Source: Escherichia phage vB_EcoM_ESCO32
DNA length: 64,000 nt
Sequence record: OM386658.1
Strand: one strand, 5' to 3'
The first letter of the stretch is position 1, and every line of letters starts with the position of its first letter. The notes beneath the pieces were generated by a model that had not been told where the DNA came from, did no database searches, and saw only the letters and a list, made by a program, of their open reading frames with translations. Made by a program: the position numbers and the translations under genes. This document shows, piece after piece, positions 26,100-63,678 of the stretch.

Positions 26100-26501
26100 A
26101 TGACTACAGCACTGGATATTCAAATTGATGGTGATCACTACAAACGTATGCGTATGCAACCTTTGGAACTTGCATATCTAATTGGTGCAACTCCTTGTTT
26201 CACTAAGTTAGCTAAGTATGCTTGTCGAAACAAAGGTGATCGTGTGATCAACCTAAACAAAGCGATTCACGTTATTCATATTGAAAAAGAATTAAGTGAT
26301 AAGTATTACAATATGTTGTATGAAGCCTACCCTAACTTAAAAAATCCTGTAAAAATTGAGTTAGCTAATCAGCTAATTGATTTATACACAGACGATGATC
26401 TTGTTCGTAAGGCTTTAAAAGCAATGTACAAAGGTAAGTATATTGAAGCAGCAGATGCTATTGAAACATTGAAGGAGAGTGTAGATGGCTTCTCACGGTA
26501 A
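26100..26501 (+). CDS. hypothetical protein
   Basis: ORF track; RBS GGAGG. Confidence 0.35.
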   Translation: MTTALDIQIDGDHYKRMRMQPLELAYLIGATPCFTKLAKYACRNKGDRVINLNKAIHVIHIEKELSDKYYNMLYEAYPNLKNPVKIELANQLIDLYTDDDLVRKALKAMYKGKYIEAADAIETLKESVDGFSR

Positions 26502-34770: not shown

Positions 34771-34968
34771 ATGATGCTAGATCAACTGATCAATGCTCCT
34801 CGCGTAACAGTAAGTCCAAAAACATTTGCATCACTTTTAGAAGATGCTAAAGAGGTTTATAACTTTACTGAAGAAGAGCTTCCTGTTCCTGTTGAAAAAG
34901 GTTCCAGATGGTTGTTTTATGAAGGTATTATTTTTACTGAAGGGAATAATTGGAAGGAGACTAAATGA
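34771..34968 (+). CDS. hypothetical protein
   Basis: Internal ATG after AAGGAGG. Confidence 0.3.
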   Translation: MMLDQLINAPRVTVSPKTFASLLEDAKEVYNFTEEELPVPVEKGSRWLFYEGIIFTEGNNWKETK

Positions 34969-35954
34969 AATACTTAGTAACAGGTGGTTTAGGCTTTATT
35001 GGAAGTGCGGTAGTTCGTTTCCTGGCTAAAAATACTAAGAACGATATTTACGTTATAGATAAATGGGGTTACGCTTCAGATCCTAGAAATTTAGCAGAAA
35101 CACCTAATGTAAAGTTTTGTCGTGTTGACTTGACAAATGCGCAGGTAACTGCTAAGATTGTGGCAGATGTTAATCCAGATTATATAATGCATCTTGCAGC
35201 AGAAAGTCACGTAGATAATTCAATAGCATCACCGAGTGTTTTTATAAATTCAAATATTGTTGGGACATTTAATCTTCTAGAAGCTGTTCGTTTAATGGGA
35301 GATAAATCAAATCTTAAAATGTTCCATCATATTTCAACAGATGAAGTGTATGGTGATCTGGAAGAAGGGGATTATCCGTTTACAGAACAGAATCCTTATA
35401 AGCCAAGTAGTCCATATGCTGCATCTAAGGCAGCAAGCGATCATTTGGTAAGAGCGTGGCATCGTACTTATGGTATTCCGACAGTTATAACAAATTGTTC
35501 AAATAATTTTGGAGCATATCATCATCCAGAAAAACTAATACCTAAAACGATAACAAATATCTTGATGCATAAACCAATCCCTGTTTATGGCAATGGTCTT
35601 CAAGTAAGAGATTGGTTATACGTTGACGATCACGCAGAAGCATTACACCTAGTAGTAACTAAAGGCAAATCTGGAGAAACATATAATATTGGGAGCAGAA
35701 ACCCTAGAACTAATATTGATGTAATCTATATGATTTGTGATTATATGGATGCGGTGTATCCATCTGAAACAGATGCTTGTAGCCTCATTGAGATGGTTAC
35801 AGATAGACCTGGACATGATTTAAGATATGAAGTGAATCCTTATAAGATTGAAAAGGAATTAGGGTGGAAAGCTAAAGGCACATTTGAAGAAAAACTTTAT
35901 TCAACCATTGATTGGTATGTAGATAACAAAGAGTGGTGGGAAAATAAAGTTTAA
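34965..35954 (+). CDS. rmlB: dTDP-glucose 4,6-dehydratase
   Basis: SDR fold: [10 protein letters not shown] Rossmann motif, YAASK catalytic YxxxK, typical length 329 aa. Confidence 0.85.
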
Positions 35955-35962
35955 GGAGGAGT

Positions 35963-36832
35963 ATGAAAGGTATTATCTTAGCAGGTGGTAGTGGAACAAG
36001 ACTTTACCCAGTTACTAAAGGGGTTAGTAAACAACTATTACCAATTTATGATAAGCCTATGATTTATTATCCGCTCTCTGTCCTAATGCTTTCTGGAATT
36101 AGGGAAATACTAATAATTACAACACCAGAAGATCAAATTAATTTTGTAAATCTTCTAGGTGATGGTTCTTCTTTTGGTATTTCCCTACAGTATGCAATAC
36201 AGGATAGCCCAAAAGGTTTAGCAGAAGCGTTTATTATTGGTGAGAACTTTATTGGTGAAGATTCTGTAGCACTTGTGCTAGGTGATAATTTATTCTTTGG
36301 TCAGAGTTTTGGTAGCATTTTAGATTCTGCTAAAGAACATATTGAAAAGAATGGTGGAGCTAATATTTTTGGGTATCACGTAAATGATCCTGAAAGATTT
36401 GGTGTTGTTGAGTTTGATTCTGAAGGTACAGTGGTGAGTATTGAAGAAAAACCAAAAGCACCAAAAAGCAACTACGCAATCACAGGCTTGTACTTTTACG
36501 ATAATTCTGTTATACAGAAAGCTAAGAGCGTTAAACCTTCTGCTAGAGGGGAGTTAGAGATTACAGATATAAATGAGATGTACTGGAAAGAAAAGACTTT
36601 ACGTGTCTGTAAACTAGGAAGAGGTTTCACTTGGCTGGATACAGGAACACATGAAAGTCTTATGGAAGCATCTCAATTTGTTCATGCAATAGAAAAGCAA
36701 CAAGGTATGAAGGTTGCATGCCTGGAAGAGATTGCTTTTAAAAATGAATGGATTACTTTAGACTCTGTAAAAAGTTCTGGAGAGGTTTTAAGTAAAACAG
36801 ACTACGGTAAGTATTTACTTAAATTAAAATAA
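35963..36832 (+). CDS. rmlA: glucose-1-phosphate thymidylyltransferase
   Basis: N-terminal [14 protein letters not shown] nucleotidyltransferase signature; 289 aa. Confidence 0.85.
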
Positions 36833-36844
36833 AGGGGGAATTAA

Positions 36845-37399
36845 ATGATTCAAGCAACAAAAATCGAAGATTTGTTGATCATTCAACCTGACGTTTACGG
36901 AGATGAACGTGGCTTTTTCTTAGAAAGTTTTAATCAGGCTTTATATGATCAATACATAGGTAAACAAAACTTTGTCCAAGATAACCATTCACGTTCTATT
37001 CGAGGAGTTCTACGTGGGCTTCATTTTCAAAAGAAAAACCCACAAGGGAAGTTAGTACGTTGTGTTCGTGGTGAAGTTTATGATGTTGCTGTAGATATTA
37101 GGGTTGGTAGTCCAACATTTGGAGAATGGGTAGGTGTTCTCTTATCTGAAAAGAATAAAACACAATTTTGGATTCCTCCTGGTTTCGCTCATGGCTTTGT
37201 TGTGATTAGTGACATTGCTGATTTTGAATATAAATGTACAGAATATTACGATCCGACTTCAGAGTGTAGTCTTGCGTGGAATGATCCAGATATCAATATT
37301 GATTGGGGTTTTGATTTAATCTTTAATGATATTAATTTTAAACCTATCTTGTCACAAAAAGATCAGGAAGCCAAAACACTAAAGGAGATCATATTTTGA
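36845..37399 (+). CDS. rmlC: dTDP-4-dehydrorhamnose 3,5-epimerase
   Basis: 184 aa cupin; DERGFFLE and HFQK motifs typical of RmlC. Confidence 0.8.
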   Translation: MIQATKIEDLLIIQPDVYGDERGFFLESFNQALYDQYIGKQNFVQDNHSRSIRGVLRGLHFQKKNPQGKLVRCVRGEVYDVAVDIRVGSPTFGEWVGVLLSEKNKTQFWIPPGFAHGFVVISDIADFEYKCTEYYDPTSECSLAWNDPDINIDWGFDLIFNDINFKPILSQKDQEAKTLKEIIF

Positions 37400-38226
37400 C
37401 AAAATTTTTAATCTTTGGTTCAAAAGGTCAATTAGGACAATCTTTGGCAAAAGTTGCACCAGAAGATGTTATTTTGATTGAAGCAAGTGATATAGACATT
37501 ACCAACTTTAAAGATGTTATGAATAGTCTTGTACAGCACGTGCCTGATGTTGTTGTGAATTGTGCGGCTTACACGGCAGTAGATAAAGCTGAAGAAGATG
37601 TTAACACCTGTATAAATGTTAATGCATACGGTGCAACAAACATTGCCAAAGCATGTAATGATTTACTGATACAGTTTGTACATATTTCAACAGACTATGT
37701 TTTTGATGGGCATGTTGCTGGCACAGAAGATAGTAAAACAAACCCCTTGAACACCTACGGTTACAGTAAACAATTAGGTGAAACTTTAGTACAAACAGTT
37801 TGTCCTACAGCACTTACTATCAGAACAGCTTCTGTTTATAGTGAATTTGGACATAACTTTTTGAAAACTATGTTGGAACGCTACAACGGTGGTCAAAAAG
37901 AATTTAATGTAGTATGTGATCATTTGTCGTGTCCTACTTATGCACCTGATCTTGCAGAAACAATTTTTAAACTTGTAAAAGATGGTGTAAATAGTAAAAT
38001 TGTACACTATGCAGGTGCAGATTATATTTCTTGGTATGATTTTGCACGAAAGATATTTCTTGTTATAGATTTATCTGTTACAGTTAATCCTGTATCTGCT
38101 TCAACCTATAATTCCAAAGCAGTCAGACCAGCAACATCTTATTTAAAAACAGATCCTACTTTAAATCCGCGAAGTGTTGATAGCGGTATTGTAAGAACTT
38201 TAACTATACTTTTAAACAAGGAGTGA
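37396..38226 (+). CDS. rmlD: dTDP-4-dehydrorhamnose reductase
   Basis: 276 aa SDR; GSKGQLG N-terminus, YGYSK catalytic motif; completes RmlB-A-C-D set. Confidence 0.75.
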   Translation: MTKFLIFGSKGQLGQSLAKVAPEDVILIEASDIDITNFKDVMNSLVQHVPDVVVNCAAYTAVDKAEEDVNTCINVNAYGATNIAKACNDLLIQFVHISTDYVFDGHVAGTEDSKTNPLNTYGYSKQLGETLVQTVCPTALTIRTASVYSEFGHNFLKTMLERYNGGQKEFNVVCDHLSCPTYAPDLAETIFKLVKDGVNSKIVHYAGADYISWYDFARKIFLVIDLSVTVNPVSASTYNSKAVRPATSYLKTDPTLNPRSVDSGIVRTLTILLNKE

Positions 38227-38228
38227 AA

Positions 38229-38489
38229 ATGAATTTTATTATCTACGGTAAACCAAATTGTCCTTTCTGCACTAACGCTAAGATTCTACTAGAACAGCGT
38301 GAACAGGATTTTAAATACCTTACCTTAGATGAAGACTATTCTTTAGATCAGATTCAGAATCTGGTTTTAGAGAAAACAGGTGTTCTACCACGCACATTTC
38401 CTCAGATTTTTGTGGAAGATGGTGAACAGCTAACCCACGTAGGAGGTTTTTCTGAACTACGTGAATTCATGGCTCAGATTGCGGAGTAA
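38229..38489 (+). CDS. glutaredoxin / NrdH-like redoxin
   Basis: CPFC active-site motif near N-terminus; 87 aa. Confidence 0.75.
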   Translation: MNFIIYGKPNCPFCTNAKILLEQREQDFKYLTLDEDYSLDQIQNLVLEKTGVLPRTFPQIFVEDGEQLTHVGGFSELREFMAQIAE

Positions 38490-38649
38490 CAATATGAAAG
38501 GTAAACAGAAACGTAAGATCTTTTCTCGTGCTTTGGCAACAGAGCTTAAGTCCCAAACTAAAAAGACGAAGCCTAAACGTGAAATGTCTCCTGAACACCT
38601 ACTGTTTCAAGAGCTAGATCATGGGGAGGGCGACTAATATAAGGAAAAC

Positions 38650-39150
38650 ATGGCTAAAGTAGTTGATGTGTTTGATATGTTACGTTTTGATGAAGGACTA
38701 AAGCTAACTGTATATCCTGATACCGAAGGGTATTGGACAGTTGGTATTGGACACCTTCTGACAAAACTCAAAGATAAAGCAGAAGCTATACGCATTCTTG
38801 ATAACTTAGTAGGTAGAAAAACCAATGGAGTTATTACTGAAGCGGAAGCTAGAAGAATCTTTGAAAGTGACGTAAAGAAAGCGATACAACAAATCCATTC
38901 AAGTACCATATTATCTCCTATTTACGATAAAGTAAGTCCTAATCGTAAAATGGCTATTATTAATATGGTATTTCAAATGGGGTTGAAAGGTGCAGAATCT
39001 TTCAAAAATAGCTTGACTTTAGTGAGTAATTCATATTATACTCAAGCCTCTATAAATTTACGTAAAAGTAAATGGTATCGCCAAACGCCTAATCGCGCAG
39101 AGCGTGTAATTCAGGTGCTTAAAACTGGAACATTAGACGCTTATAACTAA
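38650..39150 (+). CDS. lysozyme (T4 e-type endolysin)
   Basis: N-terminus MLRFDEGLKLTVYPDTEGYWTVGIGHLL matches T4 lysozyme catalytic Glu/Asp/Thr context. Confidence 0.85.
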   Translation: MAKVVDVFDMLRFDEGLKLTVYPDTEGYWTVGIGHLLTKLKDKAEAIRILDNLVGRKTNGVITEAEARRIFESDVKKAIQQIHSSTILSPIYDKVSPNRKMAIINMVFQMGLKGAESFKNSLTLVSNSYYTQASINLRKSKWYRQTPNRAERVIQVLKTGTLDAYN

Positions 39151-39977: not shown

Positions 39978-40472
39978 ATGACGCTAATTGAGATTGATCG
40001 CAATGGTATTGATGAATGCTATCAAGCTGGCTTAGTTAAGCCGAATGAGTTTAGACAGATTTATATTGACAAGATTGAAAAAGAGATATCTCTTCGTTTA
40101 GAGAACATGACAACTTTGCAAAAAGTTCAGATGTTTTTTAGTTGGTTAAAAGGCGAGGATTGGCTAACTAAATATTACCAGGAATTATCTGATAGTCAAG
40201 AAGGCTTGTTTGAGTGTATAATAAATATAGCTGGGTCTAATTCAGAATTACTCCTGATTGATGAAGAAGATTCTAAACTTCTTTTTCTTAGCAGTATCTT
40301 TCACAAGAAATCTATGTTAGTAAGAAATTGCAGTGATTTACTAAATCATCCACTAACAAGAACTAATAAAATTCTTGTGGATAAAGAAACACTAAGAGCT
40401 ATTGATTACCTCCGTAAATATGTAAGCGGTGGTAAAGCAGTCCTTAAAACACTACAGGAGGAAGTACAATGA
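39978..40472 (+). CDS. hypothetical protein
   Basis: ORF track; stop overlaps start of HslV-like gene. Confidence 0.35.
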   Translation: MTLIEIDRNGIDECYQAGLVKPNEFRQIYIDKIEKEISLRLENMTTLQKVQMFFSWLKGEDWLTKYYQELSDSQEGLFECIINIAGSNSELLLIDEEDSKLLFLSSIFHKKSMLVRNCSDLLNHPLTRTNKILVDKETLRAIDYLRKYVSGGKAVLKTLQEEVQ

Positions 40473-41122
40473 CAACAATTATTGCAACACATAACAAAAT
40501 TCTATCTGATGGTAAAGTAACAGTAGGTAATCGAGTAGACACTTTAAATTTCAAGAAAGTGCGTAAAATTGGGGATTACCTTGTTGGTGGTGCAGGACGT
40601 CTGTCTTCTATCCTGACTTTCTTTTCTTGGTTCGAACAAAACTTACAGTGCCAGGCAGCACAAGAGACAATCCCAGGTTTGGTGATCCAGTCAGATCCTG
40701 ATAAAGAAGATGAAGAGTTTGTGGCATTAGTTGTTCACCCAGACGGTAAAATTTATATGCACGAGGGTAACAATCCAACGCGAGCATATCCTTTAACTGA
40801 AGATTATTATGCTGTTGGTAGTGGGGCAGATTTTGCTTTAGCAGCTTTAGACGCTGGGGCAACCCCAGAAGAAGCGATGGAAGTTGCAAAACTGCGAGAT
40901 GCTTTTTCAGGCGGTGAAACTTTTATCGAAGAGATCGAAGAACAACTGGAGTTAACAGCGGAAGATATTCTGAACTTCAGCAAGGAGCAACTAATTAGTA
41001 TGCTGTTGACTGGTGATCCTGATAGTGATGAAGCTGAAAGTATTTTAGCAGAAATGAAAGAATCACAAGAAAAAGTATTGACAGTCTCTGAAAAACTTGA
41101 TAAAGTGTCCTCTGATAATTAA
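40469..41122 (+). CDS. HslV-like proteasome-type Ntn hydrolase with acidic C-terminal extension
   Basis: N-terminus MTTIIAT...GNRVD...KKVRKIG...GGAG parallels HslV Thr1 nucleophile, Lys33 and GxxG segments. Confidence 0.5.
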   Translation: MTTIIATHNKILSDGKVTVGNRVDTLNFKKVRKIGDYLVGGAGRLSSILTFFSWFEQNLQCQAAQETIPGLVIQSDPDKEDEEFVALVVHPDGKIYMHEGNNPTRAYPLTEDYYAVGSGADFALAALDAGATPEEAMEVAKLRDAFSGGETFIEEIEEQLELTAEDILNFSKEQLISMLLTGDPDSDEAESILAEMKESQEKVLTVSEKLDKVSSDN

Positions 41123-42090: not shown

Positions 42091-42334
42091 GAGGAGCATT
42101 TTTATGACCGAGAAATTTATTGTTACTATGGAACTCACCTTTGATGAAGAAGATTTTGATCTTCATGTATCAACTAAAGCAGATAACATTCACACAACAC
42201 AGAGTGTTGCAATCGCTATGTTCTTTAAGCAAGCAATTGCAAAACAAGCTGAAGTGTGTGCTGGTTTAGCTGTAGAGTACGCAGAAGTTGTCAAGGTTCT
42301 TGAAAGTGCTCGCAACAACGATTGGGATGAATAA
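42083..42334 (+). CDS. hypothetical protein
   Basis: ORF track. Confidence 0.3.
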   Translation: MFKRSIFMTEKFIVTMELTFDEEDFDLHVSTKADNIHTTQSVAIAMFFKQAIAKQAEVCAGLAVEYAEVVKVLESARNNDWDE

Positions 42335-42537
42335 TGGCATACAATTACTATCTGGTATATTTTAACGAAACTAAGAAAAAAGACACAGGAACTAATGTTT
42401 ATGCGGAATCCGAAGAACACGCAAAAGCTATTGGTTCAGTGCTTCTTTCTAGAATAGCAGGTGAAGAAATTCCTGTAGAGGCTATCTTTGCAGAAGTTGA
42501 CCCTGATATTCAAGAAGATGATATTACCACTACTTAA
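42334..42537 (+). CDS. hypothetical protein
   Basis: ORF track. Confidence 0.3.
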   Translation: MAYNYYLVYFNETKKKDTGTNVYAESEEHAKAIGSVLLSRIAGEEIPVEAIFAEVDPDIQEDDITTT

Positions 42538-42540
42538 CTG

Positions 42541-42569
42541 TTGACTTTAACATTAAGGTAGTGCATACT
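42541..42569 (+). promoter_or_regulatory. possible sigma70-like promoter (TTGACT - 17 nt - CATACT)
   Basis: Hexamers upstream of serine recombinase gene; -10 is weak. Confidence 0.3.
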
Positions 42570-42594
42570 TCCTGCAACAGAACAGGAGGGTATT

Positions 42595-43257
42595 ATGAAG
42601 TTTGTACTGTATCATCGACTTTCTAAGAAGAAACAACAAGGCAACCAGTATGGTATAGAATCACAGGAAGCAGATATCCAACGCTTCCTGGATTCACAAG
42701 AAAATTATACTATTGTAGGTAGCTTTGCAGAGTTTTATTCTGGTAAAGGCGATTGGAAGCAACGTAGAGAGCTTGTAAAAGCTGTTAATCTTTGCAAAGA
42801 AACAGGTGCTACACTTGTTGTTGCTAAGGTTGACCGTCTGGGACGTAACACAGCTTCTGTTGCAACCTTGTTAGAGATGATTAATGTACGGATAGCAACT
42901 ATGCCCTCCGCTGAAAATATGATAATAAATATTTTAGCAGTTCTGGCAGAAGAAGAGGCTCGTGCAATATCTGATCGTGTTAAGAAGAGCCTTAAGGTAG
43001 CAAAAGCGAAGGGAACGCTTCTTGGTGCAGCAAACCCTAAATACAAAAGAACAGATTATACGAAAACGGAAGAAGCAAAACGCTCAAGAGAGTTTGCGCT
43101 TTCTTTAAAAGATTCTTTAGTTGCATACAGAGCTTGTAAAACGCCATATATGACGATTGCAAAGCATCTGAATGAATCAGGAAAGAGAACTATTCGTGGG
43201 AGTTTGTTCGATGCCAAAGCGGTACAACGTCTTTGTGCAAAATTGAATATTAAATAA
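42595..43257 (+). CDS. serine recombinase (resolvase/invertase family)
   Basis: N-terminal YHRLSKKKQ (catalytic Ser context), GATLVVAKVDRLGRN signature, E-helix region, C-terminal HTH-like tail. Confidence 0.6.
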   Translation: MKFVLYHRLSKKKQQGNQYGIESQEADIQRFLDSQENYTIVGSFAEFYSGKGDWKQRRELVKAVNLCKETGATLVVAKVDRLGRNTASVATLLEMINVRIATMPSAENMIINILAVLAEEEARAISDRVKKSLKVAKAKGTLLGAANPKYKRTDYTKTEEAKRSREFALSLKDSLVAYRACKTPYMTIAKHLNESGKRTIRGSLFDAKAVQRLCAKLNIK

Positions 43258-43266
43258 GGAGGAAAC

Positions 43267-43470
43267 ATGGCAGTTCAATCTTTTGAGGAGACTGTTAAAA
43301 AACAATTCCTATCGAAGCGAGCGATGGTTGAATTTTTGCATTTTCTCGAAGTAGATAGGGTACTTATTGAGACTACACCAGATGGTAACTGGCAAGTCTC
43401 GTATATTGCCACCAGGCATATCGTAGACAGTACGAAAGAAGAAAGTTCGGAAGTTACGGTTGCTAGTTAA
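43267..43470 (+). CDS. hypothetical protein
   Basis: ORF track; RBS AAGGAGG. Confidence 0.3.
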   Translation: MAVQSFEETVKKQFLSKRAMVEFLHFLEVDRVLIETTPDGNWQVSYIATRHIVDSTKEESSEVTVAS

Positions 43471-43481
43471 AGGAGTTAAAT

Positions 43482-44054
43482 ATGCGTTTAGCTTTTAACG
43501 GGAAGATAAGCACAGCAAACATATTGTCAGCAGTAGGATTATTAGGTAAAAAATTCACACCTTTCAGTTTACCAGTTTGTGTAGATTTTGATCATGTGTT
43601 TGATATTAATAATCCTTCACGTTGTATCGCCAGAAGTAATATTGATAACCCAAGTGAAAATCTGTTTTATATTACTAAACCATCCCAAGCAATTTTGAAT
43701 CAATGGGAAGCAGGTCTGATTAAACCAGGTAAATATTTTGCATTACTACCTTGTAAATCATTGGCTATAGAGGACAGTCTAAACTATGCAAACAATCTTG
43801 TTGTTACAGCATTCATTGTCTCAGAAAAAGAAGAAACTGCGGCACTTGCAAACACTGTTAAATCTTTGTATGATGCTTTGGGTGTTACTTACACTACCTT
43901 CGTTTGTGAAGATATTCCACATTGCGTTGAATTCGTGGTGAATGGTGTAACTGTATGTCGTGTAGAAACAACTCAAGACGAAGACGTTTTTATTACTGTA
44001 GCCGATGTAATATCTGAACCTGTGTTTAGTTACGCAGTTTCATTAACACATTAA
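43482..44054 (+). CDS. hypothetical protein
   Basis: ORF track. Confidence 0.35.
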   Translation: MRLAFNGKISTANILSAVGLLGKKFTPFSLPVCVDFDHVFDINNPSRCIARSNIDNPSENLFYITKPSQAILNQWEAGLIKPGKYFALLPCKSLAIEDSLNYANNLVVTAFIVSEKEETAALANTVKSLYDALGVTYTTFVCEDIPHCVEFVVNGVTVCRVETTQDEDVFITVADVISEPVFSYAVSLTH

Positions 44055-46802: not shown

Positions 46803-46805
46803 TAT

Positions 46806-46830
46806 AAACCCGCTTCGGCGGGTTTTTTGT
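46806..46830 (+). terminator. rho-independent terminator (CCCGC-TTCG-GCGGG plus T6)
   Basis: Strong hairpin followed by TTTTTTG. Confidence 0.7.
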
Positions 46831-51183: not shown

Positions 51184-51208
51184 CAAGAAAACCCGCCGAA
51201 GCGGGTTT
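51184..51208 (-). terminator. rho-independent terminator on minus strand (CCCGC-TTCG-GCGGG plus T-tract)
   Basis: Hairpin followed by TTTTCTT on the minus strand, downstream of 51214 gene. Confidence 0.5.
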
Positions 51209-51213
51209 ATGCG

Positions 51214-63148: not shown

Positions 63149-63464
63149 CTATTACAAGAACAGCAACATAGAAACATCATTAATGGAGGGCTTAGTATAG
63201 GAATTAGTATAGGTATTCCCTATCAATTATTCTATATATACCTATTATTTTTAACACACCCCTTTGTACATAATATAGACAAATAAATATCTATGCCACA
63301 AAAATTTTCCGGTATACCCGATTTATTTCGACACACCCTTTTTCATAAGCGTAAAGTCAATAATATCAATAACTTGCCGCAAAATACTGCTCGCTTGCGA
63401 GAGGTGCTTAACGCGATTTTCAGCGCCCCCCGATTTCTGCCGACCGTCCCCCTCAAATATCAAT

Positions 63465-63483
63465 GAGAATAATTATCATTTGC
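63465..63483 (+). promoter_or_regulatory. Fur-box-like palindrome (GAGAATAATTATCATTTGC)
   Basis: 14 of 19 positions match the Fur consensus GATAATGATAATCATTATC; part of a ~20-bp direct repeat. Confidence 0.3.
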
Positions 63484-63658
63484 ATTATCATTCAATGACT
63501 TATAAGACTTTTGATTATTTTCTGAGCAAGAAAGGTACTACTCACAACAAAACAGATAAATTCTAAGTAAATCAATGGCTTGGCAAGTCTAAACATCTAT
63601 ATACACCTTGCCAAATGAAATGATCTGGCGTGAAATAGTGCCACCCGTGGAAGATAAC

Positions 63659-63678
63659 TGATAATGATTATCATTTGC
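63659..63678 (+). promoter_or_regulatory. Fur-box-like palindrome (GATAATGATTATCATTTGC)
   Basis: 16 of 19 positions match the Fur consensus; second copy of the repeat. Confidence 0.35.

Follow-up and report, generated by a model that had tools for sequence, protein, structure and literature searches.

The closest described relatives of the gene considered here are the Sin (Tn552/pI9789), Tn3 and gamma-delta resolvases, enzymes of 183 to 209 amino acids (aa) that belong to transposons or plasmids, combine an N-terminal catalytic domain with a long helix E and an HTH_7 C terminus, and have res sites with accessory subsites beside their genes. In Tn3 resolvase, the crucial residues are Y6, R8, S10, D36, R68, and R71 (PMC2794168). 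Similar in superfamily and length are the DNA invertases Gin (Mu), Cin (P1), Pin (e14/P2-like), Hin, and Mpi (Bacteroides), and the superfamily also includes the large serine recombinases of 400 to 700 aa (Bxb1, phiC31, TP901-1, and CcrA/CcrB). Here, we analyzed a stretch of 64,000 nucleotides from Escherichia phage vB_EcoM_ESCO32 (OM386658.1; hereafter the window), in which a 220-aa open reading frame (ORF) at positions 42595 to 43257 was recognized as a small serine recombinase of this known enzyme kind, intact and already in databases under a label that is probably wrong. We read it as an accessory gene that belongs to the conserved core of the subfamily Stephanstirmvirinae and, tentatively and with somewhat less than even confidence, as a resolvase-type enzyme that would act on replicating phage DNA. 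What is new here is the subfamily-wide conservation of the gene, the purifying selection on it, its difference in locus between genera, its predicted promoter, and its fast-diverging C-terminal domain.

The 3 kb around the ORF are 99.4% identical to the Escherichia phages muut and VEcB and 99.2% identical to phi92, and on this ground the window was assigned to a phi92-like virulent myovirus of ~146 kb (genus Justusliebigvirus, subfamily Stephanstirmvirinae). The encoded protein is 100% identical to its counterparts in phages outra and VEcB. Its phi92 counterpart, Phi92_gp053, has never been studied so far; RefSeq labels it “DNA invertase,” and many GenBank records have “hypothetical protein.” A preliminary description of the window had placed the ORF in the resolvase family from two motifs, and this identification of a small serine recombinase in a lytic genome was right. 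The ORF has exactly the coordinates given there. YHRLS corresponds to residues 6 to 10 (S10 codon TCT at 42622 to 42624) and LVVAKVDRLGRN to residues 74 to 85 (nucleotides 42814 to 42849). The Pfam Resolvase profile (PF00239) matches residues 4 to 141 far above chance (78.3 bits, cutoff of 23.3; E = 8.4e-22), and PHROG 125, “DNA invertase,” also matches (E = 1.5e-31). The gene and its parts are as follows.

42595..43257, + strand: serine recombinase ORF, ATG start, 220 aa plus stop (Phi92_gp053; muut gp179)
42595..42912, + strand: predicted catalytic alpha/beta core, residues 1 to 106, with Y6, R8, S10 (nucleophile), E46, R57, D80, R81, and R84
42913..43029, + strand: predicted long helix E and linker, residues 107 to 145 (AlphaFold2 helix 108 to 138), including the invariant E121 and R128
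43030..43254, + strand: predicted C-terminal four-helix DNA-binding domain, residues 146 to 220, of the short “Recombinase” type (recombinase domain of large serine recombinases)

The alignment of the family (A2; 33 members, 31 to 100% identity) revealed that Q24, E46, G50, R57, D80, R81, R84, E121, R128, and G140 are invariant and that Y6, R8, and S10 are conserved in at least 90% of the sequences, so that the catalytic serine and arginines (S10, R8, R57, R81, and R84), on whose presence the preliminary description had staked its assignment, are all invariant or nearly so. All six positions crucial in Tn3 resolvase have a match here (Y6, R8, S10, E46, R81, and R84), the equivalent of D36 being a glutamate, and PF00239 is found in 33 of 33 members. 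The AlphaFold2 model (mean pLDDT of 87) comprises an alpha/beta core, the long helix E (108 to 138), a linker, and a four-helix C-terminal domain. In Foldseek searches with this model, Sin, gamma-delta resolvase, TP901-1, and Bxb1 were all retrieved with a probability of 1.00; Sin and gamma-delta resolvase cover the catalytic core, and the top whole-length match is Bxb1 (9iu2_A; E = 2.9e-7, 257 columns). A profile search of Protein Data Bank sequences ranked Sin first (E = 5e-17), followed by Tn3 resolvase (E = 1e-16). By its residue set and predicted fold, the recombinase appears to be catalytically competent.

The C-terminal DNA-binding tail proposed earlier from the sequence takes shape in the model as four helices (157 to 170, 172 to 180, 185 to 194, and 207 to 216). 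The Pfam profile PF07508 (“Recombinase”) matches this domain in 14 of 33 family members, and a Pfam search for HTH_7 in it gave no match. Residues 4 to 212 align to positions 10 to 225 of the 542 positions of the NCBIfam CcrB profile. The protein is thus like Sin and the Tn3 and gamma-delta resolvases in its catalytic domain, catalytic residues, helix E, and size, but its pairwise identity to them is ~18 to 26%, its C terminus is of the PF07508 type instead of HTH_7, no res site with accessory subsites lies beside the gene, and it belongs to an early operon of a lytic phage rather than to a transposon or plasmid. It resembles large serine recombinases in the loop after S10 and in the start of the recombinase domain, but ends after the first helical part of that domain. 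It is best described, as far as the model goes, as a small resolvase-like enzyme whose DNA-binding domain corresponds to this first helical part, with no zinc ribbon or coiled coil.

The kinship of the C-terminal domain with phage large serine integrases is also what could point to an integrase supporting a cryptic lysogenic or episomal state. This is extremely improbable and, in our view, largely refuted. The protein is only 220 aa long, has neither a zinc ribbon nor a coiled coil, and is not accompanied by an attP/attB system. The preliminary description had noted that neither a large integrase nor a repressor was seen in the window, and the annotation of the entire ~99%-identical muut genome lists no integrase, repressor, or other lysogeny genes either. 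The 3.9-kb region had no match in 5,426 complete Escherichia coli genomes, plasmids included. A search of the genomes of 185,579 bacterial species retrieved no close relative, the nearest cellular ones having 38 to 40% identity and occurring in unrelated taxa, mostly Rhodobacterales and other environmental bacteria.

Among phages, the protein was found by tblastn in 171 records. At least 99% identity is shared by 55 of them (Justusliebigvirus), and identity decreases to 78% in Klebsiella phages, 57% in Phapecoctavirus, 51% in KP13-16, and 33 to 37% in large Vibrio phages. The neighboring gene used as a marker (window 43482 to 44051) is present in 132 records, with nearly matching genus counts, and its identity between Justusliebigvirus and Phapecoctavirus (59%) is close to that of the recombinase (57%). 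The recombinase therefore appears to be near-universal, in essentially all the ~130 Stephanstirmvirinae genomes, and its divergence is consistent with vertical descent. More distant phage homologs (37 to 46%) lie in the early arrays of large virulent phages, near genes for PhoH, ClpP-like proteins, NAMPT, rIIA/rIIB, and ligase. IMG/VR holds at least 596 relatives. The exact protein of the window was found in 126 metagenome-assembly blocks, and gene order was identical in 10 of the 10 places listed. One block outside these 10 places belongs to a contig of 0.2 to 1 Mb, longer than the ~146-kb genome, which could be a concatemeric assembly or something else.

The homolog of phage Schickermooser (NC_048196, ~11.0 to 11.6 kb; L015 3600 to 4200) is annotated as a 128-aa fragment because of ~19 single-base indels which, with ~4 substitutions relative to phAPEC8, fall within 500 bp covering the homolog and the end of the upstream gene. 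The case is ambiguous, a local sequence or assembly error being more likely than decay or a fresh pseudogene.

Substitution rates suggest that the recombinase is under strong purifying selection. The synonymous rate (dS) was saturated in all the deeper comparisons, and the ratio of nonsynonymous to synonymous rates (dN/dS) was 0.05 to 0.2 where it could be estimated. Constraint is unevenly spread along the protein. Relative to an 87%-identical homolog (dS > 2.6), dN was 0.05 in the core, 0.08 in helix E, and 0.22 in the C-terminal domain, and across comparisons the C-terminal domain had 4 to 19 times the dN of the core. The core (dN of 0.04 to 0.05) is the most constrained part and the DNA-binding domain the least. 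Lineages whose C-terminal domains share 36 to 76% identity are 90 to 97% identical in the segment made of helix E and the linker. The extreme case is found within Phapecoctavirus, where phAPEC8 and phiWec181 are 94 to 97% identical over core and helix E and 36% identical over the C-terminal domain (83% versus 55% at the nucleotide level), with no frameshift and with unrelated flanking genes. Thus, catalysis seems to be under tight constraint, in contrast to a DNA-recognition module that changes fast by divergence or exchange. Positive selection on the C-terminal domain was considered and is unsupported: in the comparison at 87% identity, a dN of only 0.22 stands against a saturated dS, and no dN/dS above 1 was found.

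This pattern bears on two other readings. A noncatalytic role, such as that of a recombinase-derived DNA-binding regulator, has some appeal in that some resolvases also repress their own promoter and a predicted promoter lies directly upstream here. It is highly improbable, as S10 and the catalytic constellation are invariant or nearly so, and a pure DNA-binding protein would be expected to show the reverse of the pattern seen, in which the core is the most constrained part and the DNA-binding domain the least. The second reading is that the enzyme acts on foreign DNA (host chromosome, prophages, defense islands, or competitor phages) as a factor of takeover or competition, the diverging domain tracking its targets. 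The position of the gene among early host-takeover and auxiliary genes, the lack of a detectable target site in the phage genome, and the contrast between C-terminal and catalytic domains within a single genus would all fit. This evidence is circumstantial, and we know of no precedent for a recombinase acting in this way. The C-terminal domain is under purifying selection where this is measurable, so there is no sign of positive selection. Moreover, E. coli is the host of both phAPEC8 and phiWec181, and a target in the host that they share would therefore not account for their divergence. We consider action on foreign DNA rather unlikely.

The gene usually seems to have its own sigma-70 promoter. 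The spacer upstream of the recombinase is 57 bp long and holds both of the following signals.

42541..42569, + strand: predicted sigma-70-type promoter TTGACT-17 nt-CATACT with a conserved TAGTGCATACT extended -10 region (promoter scan)
42584..42589, + strand: Shine-Dalgarno sequence AGGAGG, 5 nt before the ATG (read from the sequence)

The promoter scan as a whole showed no enrichment over shuffled sequence. The arrangement TTGACA-17-CATACT with an identical TAGTGCATACT also precedes the gene in KP13-26 and in a metagenomic relative (L033), despite saturated synonymous sites, and TTGACA-type promoters precede it in phAPEC8 and KP13-16 too. In phiWec181 there is no upstream spacer. We infer that the gene is transcribed early by the host RNA polymerase. 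Small palindromes overlying the promoter (in the window CTGTTG...CAACAG, in KP13-26 an inverted repeat of 10 bp) were rejected as a recombination site for want of conservation between lineages.

In the mechanism that we tentatively propose, host RNA polymerase would transcribe the recombinase from this promoter, in the early-gene arm of a strictly virulent phage, and the enzyme would act like a resolvase, deleting or resolving DNA between copies of one site in direct repeat on replicating phage DNA. Circular multimers and concatemers would be candidate substrates, as would the terminal redundancy of infecting DNA, and the role would parallel those of plasmid multimer-resolution systems and of Cre/lox in P1. 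Resolvase-type activity is our best guess because the nearest cellular relatives on plasmids lie beside Rep and ParA genes. Relatives with ~35% identity over their full length, C-terminal domain included, are found on plasmids of 6 to 30 kb. They are “recombinase family proteins” of ~215 aa with the same architecture, such as WP_102906889 on the 7.3-kb Phaeobacter piscinae plasmid pP18_i, which also encodes Rep, ParA, and a ribbon-helix-helix protein, and WP_338431979 on the 6.4-kb Synechococcus elongatus plasmid pIITB3_2. Unlike the phage gene, these are located beside replication and partition genes, in hosts unrelated to E. coli. The task expected of a serine recombinase on such a plasmid is multimer resolution, and Rep, ParA, a ribbon-helix-helix protein, and a recombinase form a classic maintenance set.

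Cre offers a functional analogy only, as a phage-encoded site-specific recombinase with a single site per genome; its roles are the cyclization of terminally redundant infecting DNA and the resolution of dimers. Unlike the enzyme studied here, Cre is a tyrosine recombinase of a temperate phage with a plasmid prophage, and no loxP equivalent was found in our phage. The genome of rV5, a related phage, is reported to be circularly permuted (PMC3606486). If phi92-like genomes were also permuted and terminally redundant, a single-site recombinase could cyclize infecting DNA or turn multimers into monomer circles. A resolvase-type role was also proposed in a Phapecoctavirus genome paper, as a guess that was untested there (PMC10282059). 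Of the three roles that the preliminary description had offered, resolution of multimers or concatemers is the best supported, by analogy with the plasmid relatives only; no res site was found.

Several observations weigh against a resolvase-type role. No cluster of repeated half-sites was found within ~1.5 kb of the gene and no res-like site was detected, in a search made without a binding motif, which sites elsewhere or within coding DNA would escape. The upstream noncoding DNA amounts to only 57 bp and, outside the promoter, is not conserved between the two positions that the gene occupies in different genera (loci A and B, described below). The one conserved dyad-rich noncoding block of the genome appears to be a structured RNA. 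Headful-packaging phages need concatemers, so the gain from resolving them is not obvious. A simple housekeeping resolvase does not predict a fast-diverging DNA-binding domain or a change of locus, and the plasmid relatives are themselves uncharacterized. Since the target site was not found, the biological role, like the DNA substrate and the use of the promoter, is inferred.

The dyad-rich block deserves a description of its own. Footprinting of muut against KP13-26 revealed two large conserved noncoding regions. A structured element of ~190 nt just past the end of the window (muut 64,899 to 65,085, L005 14899 to 15085; window end at muut ~64,892) is ~80% identical among muut, KP13-26, and phAPEC8. 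This block (muut 64.9 to 65.1 kb), the best conserved in these regions, was considered as a res or ori site and rejected: in the three-way alignment every stem has compensatory changes, which points to a structured RNA rather than a protein-binding site. It is probably a noncoding RNA on the + strand, with no match in Rfam at E ≤ 1. Two further candidates for a site were discarded, namely a direct repeat in KP13-16 (z score of 5.3), which is merely a 75% match inside coding sequence, and the longer upstream spacer of the P0028 lineage, which has no site-like feature.

The database label raises another possibility, that the protein is a DNA invertase flipping a segment between inverted sites and thereby switching tail fibers or gene expression. 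This is very unlikely. The label derives from resemblance: the match to PHROG 125 and weak full-length alignments to Gin and to the Mpi invertase family speak for it, as do the elaborate multivalent tail-fiber sets of phi92-type phages. However, the score against the Mpi-family master invertase profile (NF009949) is 32.6 bits, for a cutoff of 272, and the C-terminal domain is not of the HTH_7 type. We used an ungapped, shuffle-calibrated test comparing the DNA adjacent to the recombinase with the surrounding 6 kb, with the Pin-type phage pro483 as a control. The control gave a z score of 4.7, whereas the window locus and eight diverged relatives gave values of -1.4 to +1.9. A first scan of the family (inverted repeats of at least 20 nt at 89 homolog loci), which was negative, had been discarded since it missed the positive control pro483, because true Pin-type sites share only ~17 perfect bases. 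Window-wide and local scans for inverted repeats gave nothing above chance, and when the complete muut genome was compared with itself, only terminator hairpins exceeded the best scores of shuffled genomes. The earlier remark that the window shows no obvious flanking inverted repeats thus holds.

Gene organization agrees with these tests. Around the recombinase every gene is on the + strand, the tail and tail-fiber genes (muut 119 to 141 kb) all share a single strand as well, and no alternative inverted cassettes are present. The 55 Justusliebigvirus genomes are collinear both over the 25 kb centered on the gene (window 30001 to 55000) and over the 25-kb tail module (muut 115 to 140 kb). An invertible host-range segment, the first role imagined in the preliminary description, therefore finds no support in inverted repeats, fiber-gene orientation, or genome comparison. 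The signatures of an invertase, namely an invertible segment, adjacent inverted crossover sites, and alternative tail-fiber cassettes, appear to be absent, very short sites far from the gene being beyond the reach of sequence alone.

Two observations were made along with these comparisons. J-01 (PQ438393) and cardinal (PQ567651) share the only internal break in collinearity, at muut ~129,687 (L006 ~29,687), where the baseplate genes give way to the next tail protein; it was examined as an inversion and rejected, since it is a tailspike swap, with other tail or tailspike genes replacing muut gp025 in J-01 (a host-range module swap). All the top genome-wide repeats are due to the reuse of identical or near-identical terminator hairpins (AAACCCGCTTCGGCGGGTTT and AAGGGGCGAAAGCCCCTTT), found in the window at 46804 to 46826 and 51188 to 51210 and in muut at 26499, 39586, 51596, 113054, and 122976.

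The position of the gene differs between genera. In the window, the order is methyltransferase, small gene, 67-aa gene, promoter and recombinase, 67-aa gene, “HisRS-like” gene, and phosphatase, and the two 67-aa genes bound the recombinase cassette.

42334..42537, + strand: 67-aa gene, left cassette boundary; its translation aligns to phAPEC8 gp179
43267..43470, + strand: 67-aa gene, right cassette boundary; ortholog of phAPEC8 gp180, with a ribosome-binding site that begins directly after the recombinase stop

In phAPEC8, the matching block is on the minus strand (gp177 to gp183), and only a 46-bp spacer, which holds a terminator hairpin and no recombinase, lies between gp179 and gp180. phAPEC8 has its recombinase (gp216) at another position (locus B), in its other early arm and at a distance of ~16 kb, where it directly follows the ortholog of muut gp140. 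No recombinase is present at locus B in muut, and the “empty” sites at both loci are intact. Locus A, between the orthologs of phAPEC8 gp179 and gp180, is common to Justusliebigvirus, KP13-26, and the P0028 lineage. In KP13-16, the methyltransferase, the small gene, and the recombinase moved as one unit, and in Vibrio-type phages the gene lies on differing sides of rIIA/rIIB. Loci A and B were compared for shared end sequences and for terminal or flanking repeats pointing to self-mobilization, and none were found. The gene thus appears to be a compact cassette that has rarely been relocated in evolution.

Such a cassette, with its own promoter and at most 10 bp past the stop codon, might be selfish or semiautonomous, moving between intergenic positions by its own activity or by hitchhiking on recombination at regulatory sequences and persisting on that account instead of through a benefit to the phage. 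The two loci with their intact empty counterparts, the block that moved in KP13-16, the shift across rIIA/rIIB, and the catalytic segment, conserved between phAPEC8 and phiWec181 amid unrelated flanks, are all compatible with this idea. It remains unlikely when set against the near-universal rather than sporadic presence of the gene in ~130 genomes, the one or two relocations over a deep phylogeny, and an intergenus divergence (57%) that matches that of the vertically inherited neighbor (59%). There are no terminal repeats or shared ends between the loci, and the promoter spacer is missing from phiWec181. In large phages, early-gene arrays are known to shuffle without dedicated enzymes. The protein also differs from the IS607-type serine transposases, which have an N-terminal MerR-like helix-turn-helix, a C-terminal catalytic domain, and often tnpB: its catalytic domain is N-terminal, and no TnpB gene is adjacent. 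The suggestion that the ORF is a remnant of a mobile element fares poorly as well, since the ORF is intact, nearly the whole subfamily carries the gene, and purifying selection on it is strong, although it has changed locus at least once.

Combining these elements, one could picture a “mini-LSR” (small large-serine-recombinase-like) clade restricted to large virulent phages, which would be a self-relocating gene or an early weapon cutting or rearranging foreign DNA and not a housekeeping resolvase, its modular, fast-diverging DNA-binding domain retargeting a conserved catalytic engine. We regard this picture as decidedly unlikely and retain the resolvase-type role as our working proposal.

The case is ordinary in kind and moderately interesting, in that a strictly lytic subfamily has, as a strongly conserved part of its core, an unexplained gene whose product carries a DNA-binding domain that is modular and changes fast. 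Proposals to use phi92- and phAPEC8-like phages in therapy are widespread, and a gene for a site-specific recombinase is usually read as a warning sign of lysogeny. Papers on such phages state that no recombinase is present (PMC5374246, PMC10269720). A conserved and, by its residues, active-looking enzyme with no signature of an integrase or invertase clarifies this concern and corrects the database label. It also raises the question of why a strictly lytic lineage keeps a serine recombinase under strong selection. If its target site were found, this recombinase, compact at 220 aa and naturally modular in its DNA-binding domain, could attract interest as a scaffold for genome engineering.

The remaining observations concern the surroundings of the gene. 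Its neighbors are early or auxiliary genes, encoding PhoH, an HslV-like peptidase, methyltransferases, a Ser/Thr phosphatase, Sir2, and a DprA-like protein. The early arm (window ~34965 to 38230, muut 35398 to 38659, and window 40469 to 41122) carries a full dTDP-rhamnose pathway (RmlA-D-like) together with the HslV-like peptidase, PhoH, Sir2, the DprA-like protein, and several DNA methyltransferases. The dTDP-rhamnose genes and other early-arm genes are annotated in relatives, where their role in a lytic phage is not explained.

Clusters of motifs matching the core of the E. coli Fur box (GATAATGATWATCATT) occur in the window at 63462 to 63480 and 63657 to 63678, and more copies are present at muut 64.4 to 65.5 kb and 75.3 to 75.4 kb (L005 14368 to 15540 and 25316 to 25407). 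Five were counted in the window (0.32 expected) and 15 in L005 (0.25 expected), and no shuffle reached either count. The clusters lie in the two large noncoding regions conserved with KP13-26, which suggests iron- or Fur-responsive control, or titration of Fur, in a lytic phage. Beside the second set, at muut 75,427 to 75,631 (L005 25427 to 25631), there are three tandem-like direct repeats of ~63 nt, spaced by 75 and 67 nt, which look like iterons and may mark a replication origin.

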